The notes beneath the pieces are model-generated. The model searched no databases, had not been told where the DNA came from, and saw only the letters and a program-made list of their open reading frames with translations. A stretch of DNA of 64,000 nucleotides, taken from positions 121,019 through 185,018 of the forward strand of contig CAVUOY010000007.1 of NCBI GenBank assembly GCA_963743215.1, written 5' to 3'. Numbering within the stretch: the stretch's first letter is position 1; every line of letters starts with the position of its first letter. The position numbers were made by a program, and so were the translations under genes. The stretch comes from an uncultured Chloroflexia bacterium (GTDB lineage Bacteria; Chloroflexota; Anaerolineae; Anaerolineales; UBA4823). This document shows, one piece after another, positions 2,579 through 38,567 of the stretch.

Positions 2579-2752
2579 ATGGGTGACGCAACAGCCAATC
2601 CAATATATATCGCAATGCTTTGTATTCCGCGTTGCCTGGTGCCTTTGTTGATCTTATTCGGGGTTTCTTATCTGCTACGTCGTTTCGGAGTAATCGCAAA
2701 ACCTGCTCCTCCTTCAGACGAATTTCAAAAAAGTGATGAGAATAGTAATTAA
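2579..2752 (+). CDS. small single-pass membrane protein, hypothetical
   Basis: GGAGG RBS 8 nt upstream of ATG 2579; one hydrophobic helix (IYIAMLCIPRCLVPLLILFGVSYLL); its stop sits inside the RBS of the next gene. Confidence 0.35.
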   Translation: MGDATANPIYIAMLCIPRCLVPLLILFGVSYLLRRFGVIAKPAPPSDEFQKSDENSN

Positions 2753-2765
2753 GGAGGATCGGGAA

Positions 2766-7259: not shown

Positions 7260-7272
7260 TGGAGTACAACAC

Positions 7273-8928: not shown

Positions 8929-9012
8929 AGAGTTGAACCTGGTCATTGAGTGGATCAATGCTGGAGCACCGGAAAAATAATTAATCACCACCATTGCCAA
9001 AGGAGGTGAAAT

Positions 9013-9495
9013 ATGGGTGAAACGAAAGAGCTCAGCCGGCGGAATTTTATGCAAGCCGCTATCTGGGGAATTGGGGGGTTAATTGGGATTGGGTTTGGGG
9101 TGCCGGCGGTTGCATATGTCGTCGGTCCTGCATTAAAAAGCTCACAAACACAAACCTGGATGCGTCTGGGTCCAACTTCCAAGGTGGAGCTAGGCACTCC
9201 GACATTGTTTACCTTCACCATCCAAACCCAGACGGGTTGGATCGTGAATGCACAAGAAGTATCGGTATATGTGCTTTCTACTGACGGACGCACCTATATT
9301 GCAATGTCGAATATCTGCACCCACCTTGGCTGTCACATCCGTTGGATTAGTGAGCAGAATCAATTCTTCTGCCCTTGCCATAATGGAGTATTTGACGTTT
9401 CCGGTAATGTCATTTCCGGACCACCTCCTCGCCCGCTGGCGCGCTACGATGTCAAAATTGAAAATGATCAATTGTATGTGTTGGTAGGAGGTTGA
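9013..9495 (+). CDS. Rieske [2Fe-2S] subunit of a cytochrome bc/b6f-type complex
   Basis: SRRNFMQAA Tat motif plus TM; CTHLGCH and CPCHNGVF Rieske boxes; AAGGAGG RBS. Confidence 0.9.
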   Translation: MGETKELSRRNFMQAAIWGIGGLIGIGFGVPAVAYVVGPALKSSQTQTWMRLGPTSKVELGTPTLFTFTIQTQTGWIVNAQEVSVYVLSTDGRTYIAMSNICTHLGCHIRWISEQNQFFCPCHNGVFDVSGNVISGPPPRPLARYDVKIENDQLYVLVGG

Positions 9496-9496
9496 G

Positions 9497-10162
9497 ATGG
9501 CATCAAAAATAAGCCAATGGCTGGATGAACGTACTTCGATCAGCAAGATTTGGGAAGTTATCTTCCTGCGGAAAATACCAAAGGTCAATTGGTTTTATAC
9601 ACTCGGGAGTGCCTCCTTATTCGTTGCCCTCAATCAGGCAATTACCGGCATCTTATTGACCATTTATTACGTCCCCACACCCGATCACGCCTACGACAGT
9701 GTTCAATATATTACCACCCAGGTTCCTTTAGGATGGCTGATCCGTGGGCTGCACCATTGGGGTGCCAGCGCCTTGATCATTCTGGTTGTCTTGCATATGC
9801 TCAGGGTGATCCTGTTCGGAGCTTATAAATTTCCCCGTGAAGTCACCTGGTTTACCGGCGTGATCTTGCTATTGGTGGTAATTGGTTTCGGCTTTACGGG
9901 CTATCTATTACCTTGGGATCAAAAAGCATTCTGGGCAACTACCGTCGGTACACAAATCGCGGGAACTCCACCGCTGATAGGGAATTATCTGCTGCGCATT
10001 ATCCGCGGTGGCAGCGAGATATCTGCAGTCACATTGGTACGCTTCTTCGGTACCCATGTATGGGTACTCCCAGCCATCTTACTCCTGCTCATCGGGATCC
10101 ACCTTTTCCTGGTCATCCGTAACGGCATCAGTGCAGTGCCAAAGAAAGGCGGCGACCAATGA
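9497..10162 (+). CDS. cytochrome b6-like (cytochrome b N-terminal four-helix) subunit
   Basis: WFYTLGSASLF..., GLHHWGASALIILVVLHMLRV, GYLLPWDQKAFWATTV conserved cytochrome b signatures; starts 2 nt after Rieske stop. Confidence 0.9.
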   Translation: MASKISQWLDERTSISKIWEVIFLRKIPKVNWFYTLGSASLFVALNQAITGILLTIYYVPTPDHAYDSVQYITTQVPLGWLIRGLHHWGASALIILVVLHMLRVILFGAYKFPREVTWFTGVILLLVVIGFGFTGYLLPWDQKAFWATTVGTQIAGTPPLIGNYLLRIIRGGSEISAVTLVRFFGTHVWVLPAILLLLIGIHLFLVIRNGISAVPKKGGDQ

Positions 10163-12279
10163 ACGAGAAAGAAAAGCAGGCTTACCTTGAGAAATATCAC
10201 CAGGAAAAAGAGCACGGCGTCCCATTTTTCCCAGATATCATCTTCAAAGACGTCGTAATATCCTTTGTCATATTTTTAATCTTGATCGTGCTCGCATCCC
10301 GTCTCGGGGCTCCCCTGGAAGCCCGTGCAAATCCGGCGGATACGTCTTACACCCCACAACCCGAATGGTATTTCTTATTCCTATACCAACTATTAAAATA
10401 CTTCCCCGGTAAGCTCGAGGTGGTGGGTATTGTGCTCATCCCTATGGTTGCGATCATTGTGCTATTTTTATTACCACTCCTGGACCGGTCCACGAAACGT
10501 CATTTTCTGGATCGTCCGATCGTCTCTGGCGTCACGCTGTTGGTTGTGGCAGGAATAATCACGCTCACCATCCTGTCAGTCCGTGAAGCTCCTCCTCCGG
10601 TTCAGGCGACCCAAGGAGATCCCGTCGCCCTGCTATATACCCAAAACTGCGCGCCCTGCCATGGTTCATCGATCAGTGTTCCAGCCGGGACAAACCTTCA
10701 TAACCTGATTGCCCAAGGTTCACACGCAGGAATGCCCGCCTGGAGTGGAGATTTATCCTCCGATCAGATCGATGAGCTTGCCGGTTTCATTCTTTCACCG
10801 GGGGGAAGTCAGCTTTTCAATACGAATTGTGGATCCTGCCATAAAGTAGAAGATTTGGTCGGTGGAAATCCACTCGACCTAAAAAACGCTATTGATGAAG
10901 GTCTTAACTTTTCCCCGCATGCTCAACTCCAGGCTTCTGACTTGTCTGCAAATTTAACCTCCGACGAGAAAACCACATTACTTAATTTCTTGATTGCGCC
11001 GGATGGTCAGCGTTTATTCACCATCTATTGTTCAGCTTGCCATGGTCAATCCGTTGCCTATTCAGGTGAAGAAGCTCAGCTACGCCAGACAATTATCCAG
11101 GGGGGGCAGCATATTACCATGCCTGCCTGGCAAAACACACTCAGCACAGCTCAGATCGAGACACTGGCAAATTTCGTTGTGATTCCTTCTTCGGAACCTA
11201 CTGGACCAACTTTATTCCGACAGTACTGCTCTACCTGCCATGGAACCCTCATCCCCACCGCCACAGACGTCGATCAAGCTCGTCAGGTTATCGCCACTGG
11301 AGGCGCACATCAAACCATGCCAGACTGGGGAAAGGTACTCACCCAGGCTCAGATCGATGCCCTGGTGAATTTCGTCATATCCTCAACTCAAGGAACTTCT
11401 GTTGAGCGGGGTCAAACCTTGTTTGCCCAGAACTGCGCCATTTGCCACGGTGATTTTGGAGAAGGCGGTCCCAATCCGGCTAATCAAAATCAGATCATTG
11501 CTCCCATAGGATCAGCAGAATTTCTGAATACCCGCGATGATACTACCTTGTTCCAGATCATCTCTCAAGGGCAACCCGACCAGGGTATGTCGCCATTCGG
11601 CTCTGCCAATGGGGGTAATTTAGATGATGATCAGATCAATTCAATCGTGGCGTACATTCGCTCATGGCAGGCAAACCCGCCTGTGACAGCACCACCGCAA
11701 TATACCATTCCTATCCTGTCACTTTCTGCCAGCGATGTGTATAAAACCATCTGTACCCAATGCCATGGGCAAGAAGGTGCAGGAACCATATTGGGACCAA
11801 CATTAAACGACTTGTCTGACGACACCGATGAGGAAATTTCCACGGTGATCGGTCAGGGTATATCGAATACCAACATGCTCTCGTTTGGTTCCTTCTTATC
11901 AGATAGTCAAATCCAGGGATTGGTGGCACTTATTCGCCAGTTCCCTCCATCAGAAACGTCCCCGCTGGGAACTCCCACTGTTGAGCCAATTTCATCCACT
12001 CCTACATTTGAAGCGGATATCTTGCCCATTTTCGAACAAGACTGTAAGGTGTGCCATGGAACATTAGGCGGCTGGGACAGCACTACTTATCAAGCGGTGA
12101 TGACTACGGGTGATCATGCTCCGGTTGTGATCCCTGGAGACACGATCAATAGTCTCTTGGCTCAAAAACTGGTAGGAACTTCTACGACTGGCGGAATTAT
12201 GCCTCCGGGTGGAGAGCTTCCCGATGCGATCATAAAAATTATCCTGGACTGGATCGCGGCAGGTGCACCTGAGAAATAG
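10159..12279 (+). CDS. cytochrome bc subunit IV (cytochrome b C-terminal part) fused to seven monohaem cytochrome c domains
   Basis: ATGA overlap with cytochrome b6 gene; PEWYFLFLYQLLKYFPG motif and 3 TM helices; then CAPCHG, CGSCH, CSACHG, CSTCHG, CAICHG, CTQCHG, CKVCHG each with downstream Met-containing class I-like segment; ends WIAAGAPEK. Confidence 0.85.
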   Translation: MNEKEKQAYLEKYHQEKEHGVPFFPDIIFKDVVISFVIFLILIVLASRLGAPLEARANPADTSYTPQPEWYFLFLYQLLKYFPGKLEVVGIVLIPMVAIIVLFLLPLLDRSTKRHFLDRPIVSGVTLLVVAGIITLTILSVREAPPPVQATQGDPVALLYTQNCAPCHGSSISVPAGTNLHNLIAQGSHAGMPAWSGDLSSDQIDELAGFILSPGGSQLFNTNCGSCHKVEDLVGGNPLDLKNAIDEGLNFSPHAQLQASDLSANLTSDEKTTLLNFLIAPDGQRLFTIYCSACHGQSVAYSGEEAQLRQTIIQGGQHITMPAWQNTLSTAQIETLANFVVIPSSEPTGPTLFRQYCSTCHGTLIPTATDVDQARQVIATGGAHQTMPDWGKVLTQAQIDALVNFVISSTQGTSVERGQTLFAQNCAICHGDFGEGGPNPANQNQIIAPIGSAEFLNTRDDTTLFQIISQGQPDQGMSPFGSANGGNLDDDQINSIVAYIRSWQANPPVTAPPQYTIPILSLSASDVYKTICTQCHGQEGAGTILGPTLNDLSDDTDEEISTVIGQGISNTNMLSFGSFLSDSQIQGLVALIRQFPPSETSPLGTPTVEPISSTPTFEADILPIFEQDCKVCHGTLGGWDSTTYQAVMTTGDHAPVVIPGDTINSLLAQKLVGTSTTGGIMPPGGELPDAIIKIILDWIAAGAPEK

Positions 12280-12281
12280 GC

Positions 12282-13769
12282 GTGATGGCTGAGTTTTTTA
12301 CCAATAACATTATCCTTGTATACTTCTTTTATGGATTGTCCTTCTTTGTGATGGGATTGGCAGTCCTGCTCGAATTTGGACATGCCTCAAAGTTGGATTT
12401 TTCACGTGCCTTACGCCCATTAATTGGTTTCGGTTTAATCCATGGATGCCACGAGTGGTTCGAGATGTTTCTGCTTATTCGCGAGCGCGTTACCGGACCA
12501 TTCGCTGCTCCTTGGATTTTGCCGGTTCGATTAATGGCTTTAGCAACATCATTTCTATTTTTAATCGCCTTTGGAGCTCGGCTGATCAGCGGGGTTGAAA
12601 AACGTCGCTTATACGTTGGAATGCTATCGATAATCACCGCAATCTGGGTGATTGGTCTGCTTGGGGTACTGTTCAACCCCTCCACAAGCCAAAGCCGCGC
12701 CATCGCTGCCGACGTCTATACCCGCTATGCTTTGGCAATTCCAGGCGCAGCTCTCACTGTTTGGGGATTGATCATTCAGCGCCGTAAATTCATCCAGATT
12801 GGCATGTCCAGTTTTGGGTTTGATGTCTTGTTGGCAGCCATTGCTTTTGGTTTGTATGGGGGTATTGGCCAATTATTTGTTAGCAAGAGTATCATCTTTC
12901 CTTCTCAATATTTAAACTCTGCAGAATTCCTAAGCTGGTTTGGGTTTCCGATTCAGGTCTTCCGGGCTGGCACAGCCACCATGGCTGCCATCTTCATCAC
13001 CCGTTCACTACGCGCTTTTGAGGTCGAAAGCAACCGCCGCATCGAAGAGCTTCGTGACGCCCAGTTGGCTGAACAACAGCGACTGGATGACTTACGGGCA
13101 GAATTACTCCATCGGACCGTGATCGCCCAGGAATCTGAACGGCGACGCATCGCCCGTGAGTTACACGATGAAACCGGTCAGACTTTAACCGCTCTCGGAA
13201 TGGGTTTACGAGGAATGTCTGAGACCATCTCCACCAATCGCGACCGGGCGATTGAACAGGCTAGTCAGCTCGAAAAATTAGCCATGGCTGGGGTTGAAGA
13301 GCTGCAGCATATGGTCTCTGGTCTTCATCCTCCTCAGCTGGATGATTTGGGCTTGTTGGCAGCATTGCGTTGGTATACATCTGATATTAGTAATCGCACC
13401 GGTTTGGTCATTAATATAGTCAACCAAGGTGGTAAGCCAAAATTAACTTCAGACATACGGGCTGTGGTATTCCGCATTGCACAGGAAGCGATCAACAATG
13501 TCGTCCGCCACGCCAATGCCAGTCGCATTGATATCCAATTGGTCTATACCCACAATAATATCTATCTTCGGGTTGAAGATAACGGTCAGGGTTTTAATAC
13601 CGAACTGGTCTTGAAAAAAAAGCCAGGCAGACCAACCGCCTGGGGATTGCTTGGAATGGTTGAACGTGCCTCGTTGGTAGGTGGATCTTGTAATATTTTT
13701 TCTCATCCCGGGAAAGGCACACTTATAGAAGTCAATGTACCCATTATCGGAGAGACACAAAATGCATGA
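12282..13769 (+). CDS. sensor histidine kinase, HisKA_3/NarX-LiaS type, multi-pass membrane sensor domain
   Basis: About 6-7 N-terminal TM helices with no large periplasmic loop; ERRRIARELHDETGQTLTAL phospho-acceptor box; HATPase region (NNVVRHANA, DNGQGF, GLLGMVERA). Confidence 0.85.
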   Translation: MMAEFFTNNIILVYFFYGLSFFVMGLAVLLEFGHASKLDFSRALRPLIGFGLIHGCHEWFEMFLLIRERVTGPFAAPWILPVRLMALATSFLFLIAFGARLISGVEKRRLYVGMLSIITAIWVIGLLGVLFNPSTSQSRAIAADVYTRYALAIPGAALTVWGLIIQRRKFIQIGMSSFGFDVLLAAIAFGLYGGIGQLFVSKSIIFPSQYLNSAEFLSWFGFPIQVFRAGTATMAAIFITRSLRAFEVESNRRIEELRDAQLAEQQRLDDLRAELLHRTVIAQESERRRIARELHDETGQTLTALGMGLRGMSETISTNRDRAIEQASQLEKLAMAGVEELQHMVSGLHPPQLDDLGLLAALRWYTSDISNRTGLVINIVNQGGKPKLTSDIRAVVFRIAQEAINNVVRHANASRIDIQLVYTHNNIYLRVEDNGQGFNTELVLKKKPGRPTAWGLLGMVERASLVGGSCNIFSHPGKGTLIEVNVPIIGETQNA

Positions 13770-14415
13770 TATTAATTTATTACTCGTTGATGATCATCAA
13801 GTGGTACGTACCGGATTAAGAATGCTTTTGGAAGGTCAGCCAGATATGAAAATTGTTGGTGAAGCTGATAGCGGTCTACAAGCACTCGAAAAAGCCAAAG
13901 AATTATCGCCCGATGTAATCGTGATGGATATTACCCTGCCAGATATCTCCGGGATTGAGGCTACAAAACGGATCAAGGAAGAGCTGCCAAATACGGCAGT
14001 GGTTGCTCTGACAATCCATGAGGATGAGCAATATTTCTTTGAGATGTTGCAAGCGGGTGCCTCAGGTTACGTTCCAAAACGTGCCGCTCCAGAAGACCTG
14101 ATCACCTCTATTCGGGCTGCCTATGCAGGGGAAATTTATATATATCCTTCCTTGGCTAAAGCCCTGGTAGCTGACTTCCTGGGTCGTTCATCCCAAGGGA
14201 ACGAGAAGTCATCCATCGATGGGTTGACGACCCGTGAACAAGAAGTGTTGGGCCTTTTAGCTGAGGGGTTGAGCAATGACGAAATTGGAGAATCATTACA
14301 AATCAGCAAACACACGGTTGCCCGCCATCGCGAAAACCTGATGCGCAAGCTGGAACTGCACTCACGCAGCGAATTGGTAAAATACGCCATACGGAAGGGA
14401 TTAATCTCAGCTTGA
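13762..14415 (+). CDS. NarL/FixJ-family response regulator (REC + LuxR-type HTH)
   Basis: LLVDDHQVVR...DVIVMDITLPD receiver motifs; C-terminal LTTREQEVLGLLAEGLSNDEIGESLQISKHTV; GGAGAG RBS; overlaps kinase stop by 8 nt. Confidence 0.9.
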   Translation: MHDINLLLVDDHQVVRTGLRMLLEGQPDMKIVGEADSGLQALEKAKELSPDVIVMDITLPDISGIEATKRIKEELPNTAVVALTIHEDEQYFFEMLQAGASGYVPKRAAPEDLITSIRAAYAGEIYIYPSLAKALVADFLGRSSQGNEKSSIDGLTTREQEVLGLLAEGLSNDEIGESLQISKHTVARHRENLMRKLELHSRSELVKYAIRKGLISA

Positions 14416-14533
14416 TTTAGGTTAGTTTCCCTATTCATAAATCGGGTGCCAACACTATTGACGTAAGCCTTCCAATTCTTTATGATATAACCAGATAAGA
14501 AAATTGTCGGTATTGTATTCTTGGGAGGTAGAT

Positions 14534-14824
14534 ATGCGTAAAGTACAATTTCATGCCACTTTTTGGACGTTTTTGATCGCCATCCCGTTCACCGCCCTGG
14601 CCTTGATTGGTGTGGCTTTTCTGACGGAAAATCTTACCCTTATTGTTAATGCCATCAGTAAATTCAGCCGTAGTATTTCTGTGGGCGGGCGTGGCTTGCT
14701 TTTGGAGTTTTCTGCCCGCTGGCCAGAGATTGCAGGCATGGTGATTGGCATGATCGTGATCCTTACTATCTACCTGTTTGCCCAGAATGCTAATAAAGCC
14801 GAAGAAAATAAAAAAGTAAATTAA
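14534..14824 (+). CDS. hypothetical two-pass membrane protein
   Basis: GGGAGG RBS before ATG 14534; two hydrophobic helices; no recognisable family. Confidence 0.4.
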   Translation: MRKVQFHATFWTFLIAIPFTALALIGVAFLTENLTLIVNAISKFSRSISVGGRGLLLEFSARWPEIAGMVIGMIVILTIYLFAQNANKAEENKKVN

Positions 14825-14852
14825 CTATCCTGATCAAAATAACCTACTCTAG

Positions 14853-14900
14853 CTTGCGTCAGGTCGAGTAACTCGGTTTCCCTGGCGCAAGTTGTATTTA
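14853..14900 (+). terminator. putative stem-loop terminator
   Basis: CTTGCGTCAGG (14853-14863) pairs with CCTGGCGCAAG (14881-14891, one G-U), followed by TTGTATTTATAT. Confidence 0.4.
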
Positions 14901-15174
14901 TATAACCTGCCGATCAAACTTTATTCATCCCAGAATTCGTTTGTAAATTTTCATACAAACTACTCATCTCACCCTAATTTTGTGGTAGAATTATATAGGG
15001 TGTTTAGCCTATGTTTAATGGTGCGTTCAACTATATTAATGTTTGAATAAACGAACCCCAATGTCATTGCTTTATGATCTTCGCCGAAGGAGGAACAATA
15101 TCCAAAATATATACAATATCCAATACTCATCTGGTTCGTTGTAATGTTTTCTATTCCCTCATGAGGAGAGATCT

Positions 15175-17397
15175 ATGAATTACAAGAAATATCTTATTGT
15201 CGGTTTGCTGCTGATTGGCCTGGCTCTGGCCATAGCGGCCTGTTCGAGTCCACCTGCAACTACCGCTGTGGTACCACCCACTCAGGCATGCCCGACATGC
15301 CCTGCAGCTCCAGCTTGCCCGACAGCAGAGCCTTGCCCTGTTCCTGTGGTCGCAGATGTGCCATTTCAAGAAGCCTGGGTGAATTCTCCCCACGCTGATG
15401 CGACCGCTGAGGCATTCCGCCATTGGGATGAGGATGATCCGAAAGAAGTCCCCACCAGTTGTGCCAAATGCCACACCCCCACCGGTTATATGGATTTCCT
15501 GGGTGCCGATGGTTCCGCAGCTGGTGTTGTGGATGCCGCCCAACCAGTCAGCAATGGTATCACCTGTGTTGCCTGCCATAACGATACTGCCGCTGCCCTT
15601 TCTGAAGTGACCTTCCCTTCCGGAGCAGTTGTCTCAGATCTGGGTCCTTCAGCACGCTGCATGGTTTGCCATCAGGGTCGTGCATCTGGTGCCGATATTA
15701 ACGCCCAAATCGCTACCAATGTCCTGACTGACACGCTTGACACTGTCAGCACCGAGCTAAAATTCACCAACATCCACTATTTCGCAGCAGCCTCAACATT
15801 ATATGGTAGTGTGGTGAGTGGTGGTTACCAATATGCCGGCAACGAATACGATGGCAAGTTCCAACATGCTGGTGGGTTAGATTCCTGCATAAATTGCCAT
15901 AATCAGCATACACTGGAAATCAGAGTCGAAACTTGCCAGGAATGCCATACCAACGTCTCTTCTAAAGCAGATTTGGTAAACATCCGTATGAATGGCTCCC
16001 TTGAAGACTATAATGGAAACGGAGATGTCACCGAAGGGATTTCAGCTGAAGTTTCCGGTCTCCAGAGTATGCTTCTGCAGGCTATCCAGGCTTATGGAAA
16101 AGAGGTCGCCGGCACACCCATTGGATATGACGCAGCCACTAACCCGTACTTCTTCATCGATACCAATGACAATGGAACCATTGATGCTGACGAAGCCAAC
16201 TCGGATAACCGCTATGCTTCCTGGACCGGTCGGCTGTTGAAGGCTGCATTTAACTACCAGCTTTCAATCAAAGACCCCGGCGCTTTCGCTCACAATGCCA
16301 AGTATGTCATTGAGCTGGTGTATGACTCAATCGCTGACCTGAACACTAAACTGGCTTCACCGGTCGATCTCACCAAGGCTCATCGCACAGATGCAGGGCA
16401 CTTCGCAGCCACAGAGATGGCTTTCCGTGATTGGGATGGTGAAGGTGCTGTACCAGCCACCTGCTCCAAATGCCACTCGGCCACAGGATTGCCTCTATTC
16501 ATACATGAAGCAGCTGCTTCCAGTGACGGCGTTACCGGTGTGACGATTAGCCAACCCGTCTCACAGGGTTTCGCCTGCACAACCTGCCATGATGGCTCCA
16601 ACTTCCCCGCCACTTACGCGGTAGAAGCGGTGAAGTTCCCAAGTGGATCCATCCTTACCTTTGGAGATGAAGCTCCAGCTAACATATGTATTGAATGCCA
16701 TCAGGGTCGCGAATCCACCGTTAGCGTCAATAAAGCGATTGGTGATAAACCTGCTGACACCGTCGATGCCACCTTGCGCTTCAGAAATCCGCACTATTTT
16801 GGTGCTGGTGCCACGTTATTTGGAACCGAAGCTCAAGGAGCCTATGAATATACTGGTAAAACATACCTGGGACATCATGCTCACGTAGATGCTGGTCAAT
16901 CATGCGTAACCTGCCACAATGTACATGATTTATCAATCAACACTCAGCTTTGTGCAGGCTGCCATGGTGGTGCTACCGAACCGGAAAAAATCCGCATGGG
17001 AACCACCGACTATGACGGTGATGCCAATACCACCGAAGGCATGTACGATGAAGTTGCCACCGTGGAAGAACTGCTCCTGGCCGCAATTCAGAAGTATGCT
17101 ACTGATAAAGCAGGCTCTCCGGTTGTATACGATGCCGCATCCTACCCGTATTTCTTCATCGATACGAATGCAAATGGTGTTGGCGATCCAGACGAATTAG
17201 TCAGAGCTAATGGTTATGCTTCCTGGACGCCTCGCATGCTCCGCGCATCCTACAATTACCAGTGGGTCCAGAAGGATCCGGGTGCCTTTACTCACAATGG
17301 CAAGTACATCTTGCAAGTCCTATATGACAGCCTCCAGGATGTCGGCGGTGATGTTACGAAGCTGACCCGCCCAGTAATCCCTGCTGTTACCCCATAA
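15175..17397 (+). CDS. decahaem cytochrome c lipoprotein with internal two-fold (2 x 5 haem) repeat
   Basis: Signal peptide with lipobox LAIAAC; Cys/Pro-rich tether; 10 CXXCH (5 per half); halves aa 70-390 and 407-725 align motif by motif; GAGGAGAG RBS. Confidence 0.85.
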   Translation: MNYKKYLIVGLLLIGLALAIAACSSPPATTAVVPPTQACPTCPAAPACPTAEPCPVPVVADVPFQEAWVNSPHADATAEAFRHWDEDDPKEVPTSCAKCHTPTGYMDFLGADGSAAGVVDAAQPVSNGITCVACHNDTAAALSEVTFPSGAVVSDLGPSARCMVCHQGRASGADINAQIATNVLTDTLDTVSTELKFTNIHYFAAASTLYGSVVSGGYQYAGNEYDGKFQHAGGLDSCINCHNQHTLEIRVETCQECHTNVSSKADLVNIRMNGSLEDYNGNGDVTEGISAEVSGLQSMLLQAIQAYGKEVAGTPIGYDAATNPYFFIDTNDNGTIDADEANSDNRYASWTGRLLKAAFNYQLSIKDPGAFAHNAKYVIELVYDSIADLNTKLASPVDLTKAHRTDAGHFAATEMAFRDWDGEGAVPATCSKCHSATGLPLFIHEAAASSDGVTGVTISQPVSQGFACTTCHDGSNFPATYAVEAVKFPSGSILTFGDEAPANICIECHQGRESTVSVNKAIGDKPADTVDATLRFRNPHYFGAGATLFGTEAQGAYEYTGKTYLGHHAHVDAGQSCVTCHNVHDLSINTQLCAGCHGGATEPEKIRMGTTDYDGDANTTEGMYDEVATVEELLLAAIQKYATDKAGSPVVYDAASYPYFFIDTNANGVGDPDELVRANGYASWTPRMLRASYNYQWVQKDPGAFTHNGKYILQVLYDSLQDVGGDVTKLTRPVIPAVTP

Positions 17398-31696: not shown

Positions 31697-31733
31697 CACT
31701 CCCCCTGCTTAACCGCAGAGGGAGTGTTATTTA
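31697..31733. terminator. stem-loop between convergent genes (bidirectional terminator candidate)
   Basis: CACTCCCCCTGC (31697-31708) / GCAGAGGGAGTG (31715-31726, one mismatch) then TTATTT. Confidence 0.5.
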
Positions 31734-32036
31734 ACTGCCTTGCAGTTTTTCCTGCACGCTTTTAATTTTATCTTCCATGGTTTGCACTCGATCCGTGCGT
31801 GTGCCGAATCTTAACGTAGAAGAAATGCGCGGCACTCCCATCTCATGCACTCGTTCATGGCAGCGTTTGATGGCCGCGAATACGTCCTCCCACTCTCCCT
31901 CAATATTAGTCCCGTATGCATGCATTTGAGATTTAAGACCTGCTTCGGTAATGATTTTTTCGCACTCCACGATGTATTTTGAAACCGAAACACCCACCCC
32001 AATGGGTACCAGGCAGAAATCTACGATTACTTTCAT
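31731..32036 (-). CDS. MTH1187/YkoF-family (UPF0045) thiamine-binding protein
   Basis: MKVIVDFCLVPIGVGVSVSKYI...YGTNIEGEWEDV...C.. pattern characteristic of the MTH1187 family; 101 aa. Confidence 0.75.
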   Translation of the reverse strand: MKVIVDFCLVPIGVGVSVSKYIVECEKIITEAGLKSQMHAYGTNIEGEWEDVFAAIKRCHERVHEMGVPRISSTLRFGTRTDRVQTMEDKIKSVQEKLQGS

Positions 32037-32058
32037 CCTTACACCTCAATCTTCAAGA

Positions 32059-33072
32059 TTACTCATTGACCAGCTTGGTTGCGGCATCCACAATCCGCTC
32101 AACATTTGGTAGGGTTTGGTATTCCAGCGCCCGTGAAAATGGGATAGTATCGGTGGTACATACCCTTGCAAATTTCAGTGCAATACCAGCCTCCAGCGCA
32201 ACGGCTGCCAGTTCCCCCGACAGACCAAACCCCTCATAATCCTCGTCCACAACCAGCATTCGTCCGGTTTTCGAAACACACCCGACAATAAGTTGCTTAT
32301 CCAGTGGCGTTACAGTGCGTAGATCAACCACCTGAGTCGATATCCCCTTTTGCTCGAGTATCTGGGCAGCCTCGATTGCCCGGTGTACCGACACCCCCAC
32401 AGAAAGTATTGTTAGGTCCTCCCCATCTCTGCGGATCACTCCCTGCCCTATGGGGATTGGTTCCCAAATTTTCGGCACCTCTCCCCGTGCACCATCAGCA
32501 GGCACGTCGAACTTCACATTTTTCCGGCTGCCCCCTCCCATCATATCCAACCAATATTCAGCCAGCATTTTATGCTCCAGATAAATGACCGGTCCATCCT
32601 GAGCTAACGCTGATGTCATCAGACCACCCGCATCCGAAGGTGTGGATGGAACAAGCACAATCAATCCCGGGATCTGGGACAACCAGCCCCAAAGGCTTTG
32701 CTCATGTTGACCCCCATCTCCATATCCCCCACCACAAGCCGCCCGGATCACAATGGGTACTTTCCATTTCCCATTAGAGAACCTTTCGATTTTTGCAGCA
32801 TGGTTTAGGATGGCATCCATGGTCACGCCAATAAAATCTACCAGCATCACTTCGACCACCGGGTGCAAGCCACCCATGGCTGCTGCAACTGCCGCTCCCA
32901 CAAATGCCGACTCGCTGATCGGAGTAGGCAGCACCCTATCGCGTCCAAAACGAACCCGCAGGTTCAGGCGCATTCCCTGGATATCCTCTCCCAAGATGAT
33001 GATGCGGTCATCTTTGGACATGGCTTGCATCAATGCATCTTCGATTGCATCCGCAAAACTCATCGTTCTCAT
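32059..33072 (-). CDS. 2-oxoacid dehydrogenase E1 component beta subunit (transketolase-like)
   Basis: MSFADAIEDALMQAM...ILGEDI, PISESAFVGAAVAAAMGG, SQIPGLIVLVPS typical E1-beta blocks. Confidence 0.9.
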   Translation of the reverse strand: MRTMSFADAIEDALMQAMSKDDRIIILGEDIQGMRLNLRVRFGRDRVLPTPISESAFVGAAVAAAMGGLHPVVEVMLVDFIGVTMDAILNHAAKIERFSNGKWKVPIVIRAACGGGYGDGGQHEQSLWGWLSQIPGLIVLVPSTPSDAGGLMTSALAQDGPVIYLEHKMLAEYWLDMMGGGSRKNVKFDVPADGARGEVPKIWEPIPIGQGVIRRDGEDLTILSVGVSVHRAIEAAQILEQKGISTQVVDLRTVTPLDKQLIVGCVSKTGRMLVVDEDYEGFGLSGELAAVALEAGIALKFARVCTTDTIPFSRALEYQTLPNVERIVDAATKLVNE

Positions 33073-34136
33073 GCTCCCTGGTCTCCTATCTGCCCGAGGG
33101 GCTGGGTTGCTTGTTCGATGACATTCTCGATTTCATTTTGTACTTGGGACTCAATCTCCATCAGCCTTTCAGAGTCCTGGTTGACCAGTTTTTTACGCAA
33201 TAGCGGGATTGGATCTCCTTCCTTTGATCGATGTTTACGGCCAGTCTCCCGAATAACCCCAAGCATTTCCTTCAATGCGGCAGTTCGTTCTCTCAATGGA
33301 GCTCCCTTGGATTGTGTATGGGCTTTTATCAATGGTAATGCCAGCTTAATCGTATCGCTTATGGATGGGTGGGCAAAACGCAGTAACTGGTCACCAAGGA
33401 AATGCCCTTCCAGGTGCTCACAATGCGCATTCAAAAATACTGGACCTTCACCATTACGTAAGCGCCTGATTTCTGTTTGCGCTACCTTCCAGACTGCTTC
33501 AACATCTCTTCCATCCACATCGATCCCACGCAATCCGAACCCTTTGGCTCGTTCGATAAGATTTCCACCGGTCACATTGGAGCTCTGGGTCACGATTGCC
33601 AAGTCATTGTTTTTACACACGAACATGACCGGTAGCTTCCATGCGGCTGCCAGGTTGAACGATTCCAGCATCATTCCCTCGTTGGTTGCTCCCTCCCCCA
33701 AAAATGCCACTGAGATTTTCCCAGGATGCAACCTCTGGTTCGCTAGTGCAAAACCTATCGCAGCTGGACCCGATGCTCCCACGATCCCGGACGAGGCTGC
33801 CATGTGCTCAGGTGAAAACAAATGCATATGCCCGCCCAACCCCCCATCCAATCCATCCGGTCTGCCCATAAATTCCTTCAATAATAAGATCGGGTCTACT
33901 CCCCTGACGAGCATTGGTGCAGTTGCTCGGTGATCTAGCGCTAGTGCATCCCCTTCCACGAGCTGGCTGACGATGCCAACCACGATAGCTTCCTCCCCCA
34001 TGCTCAGATGCATCTCTCCTGGGATGGATCCTTCGTGCCAGAGACGTTTTACCCCTTCTTCAAACAAGCGACAGCGAAACATGAGTGCATAAAGGAGCCA
34101 ATGATCTGCATTTGGTTGTTCTATAGGATTATCCAC
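33069..34136 (-). CDS. 2-oxoacid dehydrogenase E1 component alpha subunit (TPP-binding)
   Basis: FLGEGATNEGMMLESFNLAAAWKLPVMFVCKNN TPP motif; GTG at 34136 preceded by GAAGGAAGG (ORF-track TTG 34169 alternative); ATGA overlap with beta gene. Confidence 0.85.
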   Translation of the reverse strand: MDNPIEQPNADHWLLYALMFRCRLFEEGVKRLWHEGSIPGEMHLSMGEEAIVVGIVSQLVEGDALALDHRATAPMLVRGVDPILLLKEFMGRPDGLDGGLGGHMHLFSPEHMAASSGIVGASGPAAIGFALANQRLHPGKISVAFLGEGATNEGMMLESFNLAAAWKLPVMFVCKNNDLAIVTQSSNVTGGNLIERAKGFGLRGIDVDGRDVEAVWKVAQTEIRRLRNGEGPVFLNAHCEHLEGHFLGDQLLRFAHPSISDTIKLALPLIKAHTQSKGAPLRERTAALKEMLGVIRETGRKHRSKEGDPIPLLRKKLVNQDSERLMEIESQVQNEIENVIEQATQPLGQIGDQGA

Positions 34137-34249
34137 GACTACCTTCCTTCTACCCCATAATTGGCACAATCTATTTTAAACCAAAAAGACACAAAATACA
34201 CTCTTAATTGTATATTTTATGTCTTTAATGGCGAGTTCGCTGATCTTAT

Positions 34250-35773
34250 CTAGTCAAATTTACCGATAACTTTTTCCACCTCATCCAGAATTTCTCCTGA
34301 TTTGATCAATTCCTTCATCCGGTTGTGGTCAGTATGCAAAGGTCTATCCACATCTAGATGGGCAACGTACTTTCTGATCACATCATGCGCAGCCTGTACT
34401 CCTCTCCCAGGAGTAAATTCCCGAAAGTCCAATGCCTGGGCAGCTGCCATAAATTCGATCCCCAGGATACCGTAGGCATTATCCAGGATTTGACCATTCT
34501 TAATCGCTGTATTCATACCCATCGAAACAAAATCCTCCTGGTCAGCCGCAGCCGGTATCGATTGAATGCTGGCTGGCATAGAAAGGATGCGTTGCTCGAC
34601 GATCAACGTATCCGCCGTATATTGGCTGAGCATCATTCCCGAGAACATCCCCGCCCCTTTCGTCAGGAATTCGGGCAATCCCACACTGAGTGCTGAGTTG
34701 GTCAAGCGGTTCAACCTGCGCTCGGATAACACGCATACCATCGTGATGGCTGCGCCTGCCATGTCCATTGGCAGGCTCACCGGGGAACCTTGGAAATTCG
34801 CTCCGGTTAATGTCAGGCGGTAATCGGGCAGGAATATTGGGTTATCCCCCACACCGTTCAATTCAATCTCCACCTGGCTTTGGGCATAGTTGATCGCATC
34901 CAGGGCTGCTCCAATCACCTGGGGTGATGAGCGCATTGAATAGGCATCCTGCACCTTGGTTTTCATCTTACCGGTTGTAAGGTCGCTTCCTTCAACACAC
35001 TTCAAGATCGCCTTTGCCGTCCAGATGGCTCCATTAAATCCTCTCGCCTGGTGTAAACGCACATCGTATGGTTTCAAGTTCGCCAGCAGTGCTTCAAGGC
35101 TCATCGCGCATGCAATTACCGCTTGTTTAAGCCAGCGATTCATGTCATAAAGGTGCAATGCGCTCATCGCAGTCAATAAGTTTGAGCCATTAATGGTTGC
35201 TAACCCATCGCGTGCCTGTAAACCAGGGATGGGAATTCCAGCTCTTTCCAAGGCTACCCGCCCGGGTAACCGCTCCCCCTGAAAATAAGCCTCTCCTTCA
35301 CCCATCAGCAACAATGCAATCTGAGACATGGGAGCCAGGTCTCCACACGCGCCCACTGAGCCTTTCTGACACACGACCGGTGTCACGCCTTTATTCAACA
35401 TCTCCACCAAAGTCATCGTGATCTCAGGCCGGCAGCCAGAATTGCCATGGGCATGCACATTCACCCTGCCTGCCATTGCACCTCGGATGTGTTCTATCGG
35501 ACAGGGTTCCCCAATCCCGGCTGCATGGTTATAGATCAGGTATTTCTGAAATTGCTGCACCTGCTCATCGTTCAACACACGCTCAGAGAATTCACCGATC
35601 CCGGTATTCACCCCATACATGATCTCATGCGCTTTGAGCTTTTCTTCCACCATCGCCCGGCAGGCTTTGATTCTTTCAAGCGCTTCCGCGTGTAGCTCAA
35701 CTTTCTCCCCATGACGGGCAATCTGCATCAATTTTTGTGTGGTTAAACCCGTTCCATCGATGGTGATCGTCAT
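34250..35773 (-). CDS. MIO-dependent aromatic amino-acid/histidine ammonia-lyase family enzyme (lyase or aminomutase), Ala-Cys-Gly variant
   Basis: YGVNTGIG, NHAAGIG, GSVGACGDLAPMS (MIO loop), NGSNL..., QEDFVSMG family blocks; AAGGAGAAG RBS. Confidence 0.85.
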   Translation of the reverse strand: MTITIDGTGLTTQKLMQIARHGEKVELHAEALERIKACRAMVEEKLKAHEIMYGVNTGIGEFSERVLNDEQVQQFQKYLIYNHAAGIGEPCPIEHIRGAMAGRVNVHAHGNSGCRPEITMTLVEMLNKGVTPVVCQKGSVGACGDLAPMSQIALLLMGEGEAYFQGERLPGRVALERAGIPIPGLQARDGLATINGSNLLTAMSALHLYDMNRWLKQAVIACAMSLEALLANLKPYDVRLHQARGFNGAIWTAKAILKCVEGSDLTTGKMKTKVQDAYSMRSSPQVIGAALDAINYAQSQVEIELNGVGDNPIFLPDYRLTLTGANFQGSPVSLPMDMAGAAITMVCVLSERRLNRLTNSALSVGLPEFLTKGAGMFSGMMLSQYTADTLIVEQRILSMPASIQSIPAAADQEDFVSMGMNTAIKNGQILDNAYGILGIEFMAAAQALDFREFTPGRGVQAAHDVIRKYVAHLDVDRPLHTDHNRMKELIKSGEILDEVEKVIGKFD

Positions 35774-36056: not shown

Positions 36057-36446
36057 ATGCGGCTATATGTCGATAGTGCCAAATGCTCTGGGTGCCGAGC
36101 GTGCATGGTAGCTTGTTCACTCAATCTGTTTCAAGAAAGTAATCCCAAAAAAGCTGCGCTAAATCTCATTCCTCATTTTCCCGCTCCTGGTGTGTATGAG
36201 ATGAAAGTGTGCACACAATGCGGTGATTGCGCTGCAGTTTGTCCGACGGAGGCTATCAAACTAAATGACCGCGGCGCTTACTACGTCAAATTCGACGAGT
36301 GTGACTTGTGCGAAGCCTGTGTGCCCGAGTGCCCTGAAGATGTGATGTTCGTCCGCACTGAGCTGGCTAATAATGCCTGGAAATGTGACCTGTGCGGTGA
36401 TTGCGTCAGCGTATGCGGTACCAGCGCACTGTGGATTGCAGATTAG
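36057..36446 (+). CDS. polyferredoxin-like protein with four 4Fe-4S cysteine motifs (AOR electron-transfer subunit candidate)
   Basis: CSGCRACMVAC, CTQCGDCAAVCP, CDLCEACVPECP, CDLCGDCVSVCG; AGGAGG RBS; 9 nt before AOR gene. Confidence 0.8.
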   Translation: MRLYVDSAKCSGCRACMVACSLNLFQESNPKKAALNLIPHFPAPGVYEMKVCTQCGDCAAVCPTEAIKLNDRGAYYVKFDECDLCEACVPECPEDVMFVRTELANNAWKCDLCGDCVSVCGTSALWIAD

Positions 36447-36455
36447 GAGGTACAT

Positions 36456-38282
36456 ATGAATGGTTATGGTGGAACAATTCTACGCGTAAATCTTACTGAG
36501 GGGAAAGTCTCCAAAGAACCCACACCGGCTCAGCTGGCCCGCGATTTTATCGGTGGTCGTGGTTTTGGCATTTATTTCTTGTTCAAGGAAGTTCCCAAGA
36601 ACGCTGATCCGCTCGGACCAGAAAACAAGCTGATCATTTCCACGGGTCCCCTGTCTGGCATGATGGTTCCTGGAGCCGGGAAATGCGACTGGACTACCAA
36701 GTCTCCCCTCACTGGGGGATATGCAGATGCCTCCATGGGCGGTCACTTTACCGCAGAGATGAAATATGCCGGTTTGGATACCATTATTCTCGAAGGGATT
36801 AGTCCGAAGCCAGTGTATTTGCTTATTAATGATGATAAGATCCAGCTCCTGGATGCCGCCTCAATCTGGGGAAAAGGTGCTATAGATCTGGAAGTTGAGC
36901 TTAAGCACAAATATGGCGAGGAGTATCAGATCGCAGCCATTGGGCCTGGAGGAGAAAATCAAGTCCTATATGCCAGCATTAACCATGACTTTGGACGCCA
37001 GGCTGGGCGAGGTGGCGTTGGAGCTGTCATGGGTAGTAAAAAAGTAAAAGCCATCGTTATTCACGGCACCAAGTCAGTTCCTGTGGCAGACGTGGAAGGC
37101 TACCGCAAGGCAGGTATGGCACTCTACAAAGCCTGCAAGGATGCCGAAGGATTGGCAGAATGGTCCAGGTATGGCACTACGGTGGTGACTAGCTGGTGCA
37201 ATGAAGTTGGTGCTCTCCCTACGCGCAACTTCAGTGCTGGCTCATTCGAAGGGATCGACAAGATTAGTGGCCAGACGATGCGTAAGGAAATCGTTATCAC
37301 CGACAAAGGCTGTTTCGGCTGCCCCTCCCCATGCGGCAAGTATTCAAATATGAAGCGCTATAACACCCAGGTGGAAGGTCCGGAATATGAGACCATCGGT
37401 TTGATGGGCTCCAACTTGGGCATTGCTGATATCCAGGCCGTGGCAGAGGCCAACCGCCTGGCAGACGACCTGGGGATTGACACGATCAGTGCTGGCAGCT
37501 GCATCGCCTGGGCAATGGAATGCTACGAGAAGGGTATTTTCACCAAAGCTGATACCGATGGTCTCGAGCTGAAATTTGGAAATATCGACGCCGTATTTGC
37601 CATGATTAAGAAGATTGCCTATCGTGAGGGCAAGATTGGTGATTTGCTGGCCTTGGGAGTAAAACAGGCAGCCCAAGAAGTTGGTAAAGGCAGCGAAAAA
37701 TTCGCCATCCAGGTTAAGGGCATGGAGCAATCTGCTTATGCCACACACAACGCCACTGCCATGTTGCTGGCATACATGACCTGCGATGTGGGTGCTCATC
37801 ACAACCGTTCCTGGGCTATTACCTATGACCTGCAGGTCGGTCGTGACAAGGTTGTCCCAGAAAAAGTTGCCCGGGTTATCTGGCTGCAAAACTTCCGCCC
37901 GATGTTTGATGTGATGGGTGGCTGCCGTCTCCAGTGGGTGGAGCTGGGTATCGACCGTGATTTATATTGCCCTGTGCTGGAAGCTATTACGGGTGTCAAG
38001 CGTTCCTGGGAAGACTTGGAAGCCGTCGGCAACCGTATTTGGAACCTCACCCGCATGTATTGGGTGCGCGAGAATGATGGGTTTGGTCGTGTGTGGGATC
38101 TGCCTGCCCAGCGTTTCTACACCGAGCCACCCAAAACAGGCGTAACGGCTGGTCAGATCACGAAGCTCGAAGATGTCCAACGCTTGTTGGATATGTATTA
38201 TGAGCAGCGTGGCTGGGATGATAATGGTCTACCCACCCCGGATACCTTGGAATCTCTCAACCTGACCACCTTGGTCGCCTAG
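36456..38282 (+). CDS. aor: tungsten-type aldehyde:ferredoxin oxidoreductase (AOR family)
   Basis: MNGYGGTILRVNLTEGKV N-terminus, GGRGFGIY, GPLSG..VPGAG, GRGGVGAVMGSK, DKGCFGCPSPC, full-length AOR family architecture. Confidence 0.9.
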   Translation: MNGYGGTILRVNLTEGKVSKEPTPAQLARDFIGGRGFGIYFLFKEVPKNADPLGPENKLIISTGPLSGMMVPGAGKCDWTTKSPLTGGYADASMGGHFTAEMKYAGLDTIILEGISPKPVYLLINDDKIQLLDAASIWGKGAIDLEVELKHKYGEEYQIAAIGPGGENQVLYASINHDFGRQAGRGGVGAVMGSKKVKAIVIHGTKSVPVADVEGYRKAGMALYKACKDAEGLAEWSRYGTTVVTSWCNEVGALPTRNFSAGSFEGIDKISGQTMRKEIVITDKGCFGCPSPCGKYSNMKRYNTQVEGPEYETIGLMGSNLGIADIQAVAEANRLADDLGIDTISAGSCIAWAMECYEKGIFTKADTDGLELKFGNIDAVFAMIKKIAYREGKIGDLLALGVKQAAQEVGKGSEKFAIQVKGMEQSAYATHNATAMLLAYMTCDVGAHHNRSWAITYDLQVGRDKVVPEKVARVIWLQNFRPMFDVMGGCRLQWVELGIDRDLYCPVLEAITGVKRSWEDLEAVGNRIWNLTRMYWVRENDGFGRVWDLPAQRFYTEPPKTGVTAGQITKLEDVQRLLDMYYEQRGWDDNGLPTPDTLESLNLTTLVA

Positions 38283-38342: not shown

Positions 38343-38567
38343 ATGAGCGCCACAATACGACCTCTCGGAATGCTGAAAGATTACCTCGGTGAGTTTAAAG
38401 AAGCCACGGTTGATTCCGGCGGCTCGGTTCTTGAGGCAATTCGTTTAATTGGCATTAATCCCGACCTGGTTGCAGGCGTGTTCGTCAACGGGGATCAGCA
38501 ATCCAAGGACTATATTTTACAGGATGGGGATATTGTCAGGCTGTTGGCAGTCATTGGCGGTGGCTAA
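38343..38567 (+). CDS. MoaD/ThiS-family ubiquitin-like sulfur-carrier protein
   Basis: 74 aa, beta-grasp-like sequence ending in ...LLAVIGGG (C-terminal Gly-Gly). Confidence 0.65.
   Translation: MSATIRPLGMLKDYLGEFKEATVDSGGSVLEAIRLIGINPDLVAGVFVNGDQQSKDYILQDGDIVRLLAVIGGG

Follow-up and report, generated by a model that had tools for sequence, protein, structure and literature searches.

A natural Ala-Cys-Gly triad at the presumed MIO-forming site of a histidine-ammonia-lyase-like enzyme and its repeated exchange with Ala-Ser-Gly

The locus and its product

The window, meaning the whole 64-kb stretch of DNA analyzed here, carries on its minus strand (34250–35773) a gene for a 507-residue enzyme of the MIO family (PF00221) that resembles histidine ammonia-lyase (HAL), as recognized from the open reading frame, the profile matches and the predicted fold. 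The reading frame opens with ATG, ahead of which stands an AAAGGAG sequence, and closes with TAG. The PF00221 profile is matched over its full length (E = 6.7e-159; residues 10–468 against profile positions 1–466 of 466), which bears out the assignment to the ammonia-lyase family made in the original prediction. The NCBIfam subfamily model PRK09367, which is looser than TIGR01225, is passed narrowly (527.9 vs a cut-off of 524), and the score for the hutH equivalog TIGR01225 lies below its cut-off (493.1 vs 539.15). All aminomutase equivalogs score far below their cut-offs (TIGR03832, 342.8 vs 501; TIGR04475, 332.6 vs 800; TIGR04473, 160.3 vs 1250), and the PAL/TAL models fall far short of theirs (TIGR01226, 197.7 vs 519; FlxA TAL, 313 vs 700).

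The AF2 model of the protein has a pLDDT of 93.4, and a Foldseek search with this model reveals the all-helical HAL/PAL fold. The top PDB match is the HAL of Pseudomonas putida (PpHAL, HutH; 1B8F/1GKM), with a TM score of 0.94, an rmsd of 1.8 Å and an identity of 34% (Foldseek); SgTAM, RsTAL and AvPAL each reach a TM score of at least 0.90. The best PDB match by sequence is the HAL of Thermoplasma acidophilum (7TQR; E = 1.9e-85, full length), which has the same active-site residues but differs in its Ala-Ser-Gly triad and its SH motif, the identity being 32% (Foldseek). The best matches of the protein, by sequence as well as by structure, are all HALs.

Neither hutU nor hutI occurs among the scanned ORFs of the window or in the 10-kb flanks of 81 related loci, in agreement with the earlier observation that the gene is not next to them; in this it is unlike P. 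putida hutH, as it stands outside any hut operon. Furthermore, when the 3,705 flank ORFs were clustered all against all, none of the neighbors was shared by more than 8 loci out of 81. In the window, the neighboring genes encode an E1 alpha/beta TPP enzyme, an MTH1187 thiamine-binding protein and an M20 peptidase, together with a divergent ferredoxin, AOR and a MoaD/ThiS-like gene. Reading a function from these neighbors was rejected, because they are common only to the four nearest relatives (L001, L002, L004 and L016). The window also encodes multihaem cytochromes, and scanning it against Rfam returned no matches.

The triad and the active site

The peptide around the triad reads GSVGACGDLAPMS. 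The presumed MIO precursor is Ala142-Cys143-Gly144, encoded by gcg tgt gga on the minus strand (35342–35350), with Ala142 at 35348–35350, Cys143 (TGT) at 35345–35347 and Gly144 at 35342–35344. Strand reading and codon mapping both return Ala-Cys-Gly, exactly where the original prediction had placed it, and when the protein is aligned to PpHAL (1gkm) with HMMER, A-C-G falls precisely on A142-S143-G144. The protein thus has Ala-Cys-Gly in place of the X-Ser-Gly (Ala-Ser-Gly) precursor, with the GSVG and DLAP flanks intact, so that the GSVGAxGDLAP loop is the same as in PpHAL. Residue 143 is Ser in all characterized MIO enzymes, and the middle Ser of the triad has been described as strictly conserved (PMC3903478, PMC9002059, bioRxiv 10.64898/2026.04.22.720169); our literature search found no mention of a natural Ala-Cys-Gly triad or of Cys at the middle position. 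The MIO tripeptide does vary in nature, as the SSG and TSG forms among family representatives illustrate, but the variation described concerns its first residue, and the middle Ser, the source of the methylidene carbon, is treated as invariant.

The remaining active-site residues correspond closely to those of PpHAL (all coordinates on the minus strand; PpHAL residues in parentheses). Tyr53, the inner-loop catalytic base (Tyr53; 35615–35617), and Asn195 (Asn195; 35189–35191) are invariant in 197 aligned orthologues. The same holds for Gln275, the catalytic Tyr278 and the carboxylate-binding Arg281 (Gln277, Tyr280 and Arg283; 34931–34951), and for the MIO-forming residues Asp145 and Phe327 (Phe329, needed for MIO formation; 34793–34795). 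The HAL imidazole-recognition residues are also kept and invariant, namely His83 and the HAL-specific acidic residue Glu413 (Glu414; 34535–34537), as is Met381 (Met382). The residues that reportedly confer PAL/TAL selectivity, Phe/His-Leu at 82–83 and Gln at the position of Glu414, are absent, since these positions hold Asn-His and Glu. The Asn82-His83 pair (35525–35530) forms an NH motif where HAL has the SH substrate-recognition motif (Ser82 in PpHAL), and NH is found in 301 of 302 clade members. In addition, two HAL histidines near the active site are replaced, by Gln in NFQG and by Phe in QEDF, vs NFH(A/G) and QEDH in HAL (NFHA and QEDH in P. putida). The SH motif and the roles of His83, Glu414 and Met382 are described in PMC11432326.

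Distribution of Cys and Ser among relatives

A survey of the triad across relatives, one of the checks proposed with the original prediction, finds Cys to be widespread. Among 302 distinct orthologous proteins (at least 70% identical), 227 carry ACG and 75 carry ASG, with no other triad. In 82 genome assemblies that span about ten phyla, codon 143 is TGC in 40, TGT in 18, TCC in 9, AGC in 7, TCA and TCG in 3 each, and AGT and TCT in 1 each. A Cys codon is present in 57 of the 81 independently assembled related genomes (TGC 40, TGT 17), and the nearest relative, L001 (96% identity), has TGT as well. Among the hosts are Anaerolineales, Ignavibacteriota, Aminicenantes and Zixibacteria; in the cultured anaerobe Caldithrix abyssi (DSM 13497), the orthologue P0449 has ASG.

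In the wider family, 9 of 150 representatives have ACG, most of them relatives of the NH-motif clade; SSG is found in 10 and TSG in 1, and 4 lack the triad, the MIO-less pattern being GS(V/L)GY--L. An independent lineage of canonical hutH type, typified by P0234, which passes the hutH equivalog cut-off (650 vs 539), has ACG in 57 of its 120 members and has switched at least 8 times. Two of its members, P0307 and P0315, have no adjoining hut genes. The lineage is assigned to Silvanigrellales by one source; Fluviispira and Silvanigrella, the cultured relatives in that group, are aerobic freshwater bacteria. Furthermore, a sister mini-clade with the SH motif has ACG in all four members. One of them, P0390, is encoded immediately upstream of an AMP-binding/PP-binding/KS (PKS) loading module, a context that would require an active lyase or mutase, and another, P0121, precedes an AMP-ligase-like gene that is itself cut by the contig end.

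Proteins with ACG in hut operons were also considered as support for a working ACG triad in HAL. P0172 stands beside urocanase and amidohydrolases, yet both it and P0203 were discounted, as they lack Gln277 and Tyr280 (LRDALS(I/L)RC) and P0172 also adjoins an ASG paralogue.

Cys at the middle of the MIO triad is accordingly widespread in nature, extending over hundreds of species and including the majority of this clade, a canonical hutH lineage and a PKS-linked sister clade. The expectation that a natural Cys would be unusual remains valid relative to the literature, in which Ser is strictly conserved; it does not hold in sequence space, where Cys is the majority state of the clade and recurs in the independent hutH lineage. 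The ACG proteins will be overlooked or wrongly labeled when MIO enzymes are annotated or mined by motif (ASG, TSG, SSG or "didehydroalanine (Ser)" rules).

Evolutionary pattern at residue 143

On a tree of 121 proteins, at least 16 Cys/Ser changes are counted, and the closest Cys/Ser pair differs at 2.8% of the other sites. On the tree of 82 genomes, residue 143 is exchanged 14 times at the amino-acid level, or in 17 single-nucleotide steps. Cys is probably the ancestral state of the orthologous clade, and the switches from Cys to Ser, about 14–17 in number, appear to have been independent of each other.

This mobility is confined to a single position of the loop. Within the run G138–P148 in the 82 genomes, the other ten residues are invariant and their codons show 21–40 synonymous changes. 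The 14 amino-acid changes at residue 143 are close in number to the changes at two-fold synonymous codons nearby, which number 14 at C135, 21 at D145 and 11 at Q151. Ser139, an ordinary invariant serine that serves as an internal control, is encoded by TCN in 81 genomes and by AGC in 1, and is never replaced by Cys. The Ser codons at position 143 belong to both families (TCN 16, AGY 8), each one step from TGY; the site illustrates the passage of Ser codons between TCN and AGY via a tolerated Cys intermediate. In the alignment of 197 orthologues, of which 163 columns are invariant, only weak associations with the Cys/Ser state are found, all compatible with phylogenetic structure, and no column covaries tightly with it; the recurrent switch calls for no change elsewhere in the protein.

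Taken as a whole, the pattern is equivalent to a mutagenesis experiment carried out by nature, in which the precursor residue toggles between Cys and Ser at a roughly synonymous rate with its neighbors frozen. This is the expectation if post-translational chemistry erases the difference between the two residues. Between phyla, the protein as a whole keeps an identity of about 80%, with synonymous sites saturated and GC3 ranging from 0.23 to 0.99. Ordinary HutH is far less conserved, a contrast that hints at another or an extra constraint.

Proposed maturation of Cys143

The most probable reading, in which we place good though not complete confidence, is that of a functional MIO-dependent ammonia-lyase in which the exocyclic methylidene of 4-methylidene-imidazol-5-one (MIO) derives from Cys143 and not from a Ser. 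Upon folding, the amide nitrogen of Gly144 would attack the carbonyl of Ala142, and the backbone would cyclize with loss of water. The β-substituent of residue 143 would then be eliminated, as H2S from Cys vs H2O from Ser. Because this substituent leaves, the mature cofactor would be chemically identical whichever residue is encoded, and the replacement would be "post-translationally synonymous" and subject to near-neutral drift. Since Cys and Ser are swapped almost as freely as in a silent change, both most likely mature to the same cofactor. We infer MIO formation and the loss of H2S from what is directly observed in the sequence, the conservation pattern and the fold. Among the Cys-bearing members, the G-S-V-G-A-x-G-D-L-A-P loop is invariant together with Y53, N195, Q277, Y280, R283, F329 and E414 (PpHAL numbering). 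The earlier suggestion that Cys can act as an alternative dehydroalanine/MIO precursor thus gains support from the evolutionary pattern, of which it appears to be the best explanation. Counting against it, all enzymes characterized in the accessible literature have Ser at this position.

An S143C mutant of P. putida HAL is reported to mature to a fully active enzyme. This mutant has the same Ala-Cys-Gly triad, and its activity would imply that H2S is lost and that the same dehydroalanine/MIO results; it is, however, an engineered single mutant, whereas the Cys described here is natural, in the majority, probably ancestral and spread over hundreds of species. The known mechanism is not overturned, because the mutant already predicted a Cys precursor. 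Cys precursors may mature differently, as thiolate is the better leaving group, and this bears on the engineering of PAL/HAL biocatalysts and therapeutics.

Several other explanations of the Cys codon were weighed. A single substitution would turn TCT or AGT into TGT, so that a sequencing or assembly error masking a true Ser is conceivable in principle; its probability is practically negligible, as Cys recurs in the independent assemblies with both TGC and TGT, in the majority of distinct orthologues from many projects, and as TGT itself in L001. A free Cys143 thiol, in a lyase that has dispensed with MIO for another chemistry or in an inactive relic, would be in line with the existence of MIO-less PF00221 members (ergothionase, 6S7J, and the histidine-betaine lyases) and with the representatives that lack the triad. 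Those MIO-less trimethylammonia-lyases share the fold and act on histidine-like substrates, but in them the triad is gone altogether (GS(V/L)GY--L); they act on trimethylammonium substrates and need no electrophilic cofactor. Here the surroundings of the triad are invariant, as are Phe329 and Asp145, the residues that form MIO. Moreover, a thiol and a hydroxyl would not interchange 14–17 times without compensating changes, and a relic is ruled out by the very strong purifying selection that maintains the invariant columns across such a range of GC3. We regard a free thiol as very unlikely.

It is also conceivable, though rather improbable, that Cys does form MIO without being neutral, either because it is favored through faster or lower-temperature maturation or because it is tolerated only in reducing, anoxic habitats. 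The better leaving group, the ancestral state of Cys and its share of 75% in a clade of mostly anaerobic lineages (the hosts named above among them), its fixation in the sister mini-clade and its rarity in the family outside the relatives of this clade are all compatible with such an effect, as are the multihaem cytochromes and AOR of the window. It is, however, difficult to reconcile an advantage with about 14–17 reversions to Ser, the lack of a covarying site and the near-synonymous rate. Anoxia in particular does not seem to be required for ACG, taking into account that the cultured relatives of the second ACG lineage, if this belongs to Silvanigrellales as the one source states, are aerobic; conversely, the anaerobe C. 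abyssi has ASG.

Substrate and possible role

All eight catalytic residues of PpHAL (Y53, H83, N195, Q277, Y280, R283, F329 and E414) are kept, and the presence of His83 and Glu414 among them makes histidine the likeliest substrate. Together with Met382, these two residues favor histidine over Phe or Tyr, as do the low aminomutase, PAL and TAL scores. Deamination of L-histidine to urocanate is, on this sequence evidence, the reaction toward which we incline, by a modest degree. The original prediction had left the substrate open among His, Phe and Tyr, and the activity between lyase and aminomutase; with the HAL residues kept and the mutase, PAL and TAL models failing, the choice is now narrower. 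Several observations count against histidine, namely the TIGR01225 score (493 < 539), the NH motif, the NFQG/QEDF replacements, the lack of hut neighbors and the extreme conservation.

These same observations speak for an MIO-dependent enzyme other than a catabolic HAL. It would act on a different substrate (a histidine derivative or another arylalanine) or be an aminomutase, and its role would account for both its extreme conservation and its stand-alone position. The missed hutH cut-off, NH in place of SH, NFQG and QEDF in place of NFH(A/G) and QEDH, the 81 loci without hut neighbors and an identity near 80% across phyla at saturated synonymous sites all fit such an enzyme, and the closest sister clade has a member that heads a PKS cluster and not a hut operon. 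On the other hand, His83, Glu414 and Met382, which distinguish HAL from PAL, TAL, PAM and TAM, are invariant, the aminomutase, PAL and TAL models stay far under their cut-offs, and no natural MIO enzyme has been established for a substrate beyond His, Phe and Tyr (PMC11432326). We consider such an enzyme the less likely reading, and deamination of histidine remains the preferred assignment.

The NH-motif clade consists of 507-residue proteins that are about 80% identical over some ten phyla and stand alone in the genome. More speculatively still, this clade might constitute an unrecognized type of MIO enzyme with its own substrate and role, in which Cys would be original and possibly advantageous and H2S would be released on maturation; the position of one sister-clade member immediately upstream of a PKS loading module points in this direction, although we consider the idea doubtful. 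Such an enzyme could, for example, provide an acrylate, urocanate or a different one, to serve as electron sink or building block. The genome paper of Caldithrix abyssi mentions neither histidine nor urocanate. Its complete genome (CM001402.1) is among those that carry the gene, together with CP070764.1 and CP070750.1.

The lyase gene and its active-site triad

The window protein is a 507-aa open reading frame on the minus strand (34250..35773), with its ATG placed 7 bases 3' of an AAAGGAG motif and TAG as the stop codon. In Pfam it gives a full-length match to PF00221 (aromatic amino acid lyase; E 6.7e-159). Among the NCBIfam models, the histidine ammonia-lyase (HAL) subfamily model PRK09367 is narrowly passed (527.9 vs a cut-off of 524) and the hutH equivalog TIGR01225 is missed (493 vs 539); the protein lies far under the cut-offs of the tyrosine/phenylalanine aminomutase, PAL and TAL models. 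The closest solved structures are HALs, namely 7TQR and 1GKM from Pseudomonas putida (PpHAL), with E about 1e-85, and the AlphaFold2 model (pLDDT 93.4) compares with PpHAL at TM 0.94 and rmsd 1.8 Å. All PpHAL active-site residues are kept in the alignment mapping: Y53, H83, N195, Q277, Y280, R283, F329, E414 and M382. The Ala142-Cys143-Gly144 (ACG) triad of the window protein, within GSVGACGDLAPMS, falls on Ala142-Ser143-Gly144 of PpHAL. It is encoded by gcg tgt gga (35350-35342, minus strand), and the coordinates, codons and residue numbers of the original prediction proved exact against the minus-strand sequence and codon mapping.

Cys and Ser at position 143

The triad Cys had been regarded as unusual. 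Within the clade of orthologues that share 70% or more identity with the window protein it is not rare: the pooled distinct sequences comprise 227 ACG and 75 Ala-Ser-Gly (ASG), with no other triad. The nearest 120 database proteins (84-96% identical, mainly from Anaerolineales MAGs) divide into 86 ACG and 34 ASG. A scan of relatives, with one genome per species, gave at least 580 encoding stretches, of which the best 80 loci (79-90% identical) were used; the hosts belong to Chloroflexota, Ignavibacteriota, Acidobacteriota/Aminicenantes, Zixibacteria, Gemmatimonadota, Calditrichota, Marinimicrobia and others. With one separately fetched locus included, ACG is found in 57 of 81 loci (TGC 40, TGT 17) and ASG in 24 (TCC 9, AGC 7, TCA 3, TCG 3, AGT 1, TCT 1). 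Cys is the majority state at position 143 in the clade, and its repetition across independent loci and pooled orthologues excludes a sequencing error.

A neighbour-joining tree computed for 121 proteins with the triad column left out requires at least 16 Cys/Ser changes; change numbers from such trees and parsimony counts are approximate, the qualitative pattern being robust. The closest Cys/Ser pair in this set differs at only 2.8% of the other positions. In step-matrix parsimony on a tree of 82 genomes (TGY to TCN or AGY, 1 step; TCN to AGY, 2), a Cys root is cheapest, at 17 steps. Ten residues of G138-P148 are invariant, yet their codons carry 21-40 synonymous changes; the 14 amino-acid changes at residue 143 are of the same order as those at the two-fold synonymous sites C135 (14), D145 (21) and Q151 (11). 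The ordinary invariant Ser139, taken as internal control, is encoded by TCN in 81 genomes, AGC in one and Cys in none. No alignment column covaries tightly with the Cys/Ser state (best Fisher P about 7e-6, with leaky contingency tables), and the weak associations are compatible with phylogenetic structure. Ser orthologues use both codon families at position 143 (TCN 16, AGY 8), and a tolerated Cys (TGY) appears to be a one-step bridge between them.

Conservation of the clade

Across the loci, the GC content of the lyase gene ranges from 37% to 71% (GC3 0.23 to 0.99) and follows that of the flanking DNA (r = 0.97, 77 loci). Despite this spread, protein identity stays at about 80% across roughly ten phyla, 163 of 507 columns are invariant in 197 sequences, and outside the clade the closest sequences reach only 59% and 54% identity. 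By these sequence comparisons, the clade is an orthologous group with sharp boundaries and under unusual constraint. For a HAL homologue such conservation is unusually strong, and the gene stands alone throughout the related loci L001-L081. A cultured member exists in the anaerobe Caldithrix abyssi DSM 13497 (P0449, 77% identical, ASG, 'NH' at residues 82-83, stand-alone), which offers an experimental entry point. Its gene (L090 10001-11524 = CM001402.1 447595-449118) adjoins two transposase genes, and the C. abyssi genome paper contains no discussion of it.

Proposed cofactor formation from Cys143

In the proposed maturation, the backbone of residues 142-144 would cyclise first, and the side chain of residue 143 would then be eliminated, as H2O from Ser or H2S from Cys, so that both routes would end in the same 4-methylidene-imidazol-5-one (MIO). 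Taking together the strong constraint, the restriction of position 143 to residues with a beta leaving group and their near-neutral interchange, the simplest explanation is that maturation erases both. We infer that the natural, widespread Cys143 serves as MIO precursor; this part of the original prediction gains from the Cys/Ser pattern, whereas the presumed rarity of Cys does not hold within this clade. The inferred route matches a laboratory variant: Langer, Lieber and Retey are said to have obtained, in 1994, an S143C mutant of PpHAL that became fully active. ASG has been described as 'a strictly conserved tripeptide' (PMC3903478), and the accessible literature yielded no paper that mentions both MIO and Ala-Cys-Gly or ACG. 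With respect to the literature, ACG is a new natural variation on a known cofactor-forming motif, anticipated by the 1994 mutant. It corrects motif-based annotation, provides a clean natural experiment at the Cys/Ser site and points to an uncharacterised, very conserved HAL-like clade.

The triad elsewhere in PF00221

In the window protein and the best 150 representatives of clusters at 50% identity, the triad is ASG in 123, SSG in 10, ACG in 9 and TSG in 1. The triad is absent in four (P0174, P0199, P0222 and P0241), which read GS(V/L)GY--L, the MIO-less pattern of ergothionase/histidine-betaine lyases in recent Shewanella preprints. Outside the clade, position 143 is also mixed in the canonical hutH lineage of P0234 (TIGR01225 650 vs 539): of 120 relatives, 57 carry Cys and 63 carry Ser, and the state has switched at least 8 times. 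One source calls a member Silvanigrellales.

Two further ACG proteins, P0172 and P0203, appear to form a divergent paralogue family. In a hut-like cluster (L087 1576-9536), genes for urocanase and a pair of amidohydrolases accompany two PF00221 genes in tandem, of which one is canonical with ASG and the next is P0172, with ACG, LRDALSIRC and DLQALAH. Both paralogues were dropped as functional evidence for ACG, since Gln277 and Tyr280 are missing and P0172 adjoins an ASG paralogue.

Substrate and role

PAL, TAL and the mutases carry Leu at position 83 and Gln at position 414. In the clade, His83, Glu414 and Met382, whose roles in HAL have been described (PMC11432326), are invariant. Since these HAL-distinguishing residues are kept, L-histidine is most likely the substrate of the window enzyme; the choice among His, Phe and Tyr, originally left open, narrows toward His. 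Against a plain HAL, the TIGR01225 cut-off is missed, 'NH' replaces 'SH' at residues 82-83 in 301 of 302 clade members, and in the window protein the HAL motifs NFH(A/G) and QEDH read NFQG and QEDF. Neither hutU nor hutI is present among the ORFs scanned in the 64-kb window, in agreement with the original prediction, and when the 3,705 ORFs flanking 82 loci were clustered, no neighbour was shared by more than 8 of the 81 loci fetched. The clade may have a role other than ordinary histidine catabolism.

Genomic context

A sister mini-clade (P0121, P0390, P0391 and P0392; 56-61% identical to the window protein) has ACG and 'SH' in all four members. Directly downstream of the P0390 gene (L091 8001-9545 and 9567-17545) come a megasynthase of 2,368 aa with AMP-binding, PP-binding and ketosynthase domains and a further giant PKS of 3,903 aa; MacB/FtsX ABC exporter genes are located upstream. 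In this context at least, the product of the predicted enzyme must be made, and the arrangement looks like an MIO enzyme feeding an unusual, possibly urocanate-like, starter unit to a polyketide pathway. Similarly, P0121 (L086 5368-6897) is directly upstream of an AMP-ligase-like gene (6897-8225) that is truncated at the contig edge. The neighbours of P0391 differ, being TonB-receptor and ExbBD genes.

In the window, the lyase is followed directly downstream by genes for the E1 alpha (33069-34169) and E1 beta (32059-33072) subunits of a TPP enzyme, both well under the PDH equivalog cut-offs, and then for an MTH1187-family thiamine-binding protein (31731-32036), all on the minus strand. No E2/E3 gene was identified among the scanned ORFs near them, and the arrangement (31731-34169) occurs only in the closest relatives. 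The plus strand, divergent from the lyase, encodes a poly-ferredoxin (36057-36446) and a protein of the aldehyde:ferredoxin oxidoreductase (AOR) family (36456-38282), which scores far under the cut-off of the AOR equivalog. It also has a 74-aa ORF (38343-38567) whose counterpart in L001 has a weak ThiS match. The E1, thiamine-binding and ferredoxin/AOR genes were dropped as a clue to function, being common only to the four nearest relatives. Further away, a plus-strand series of large genes for multihaem c-type cytochromes (2733-17397), with cytochrome b561/NapC-NirT-like, c3/c7, MtrC/MtrF-like and cbb3-type c domain matches, suggests that this Anaerolineales-like genome has a module for extracellular or anaerobic respiratory electron transfer.
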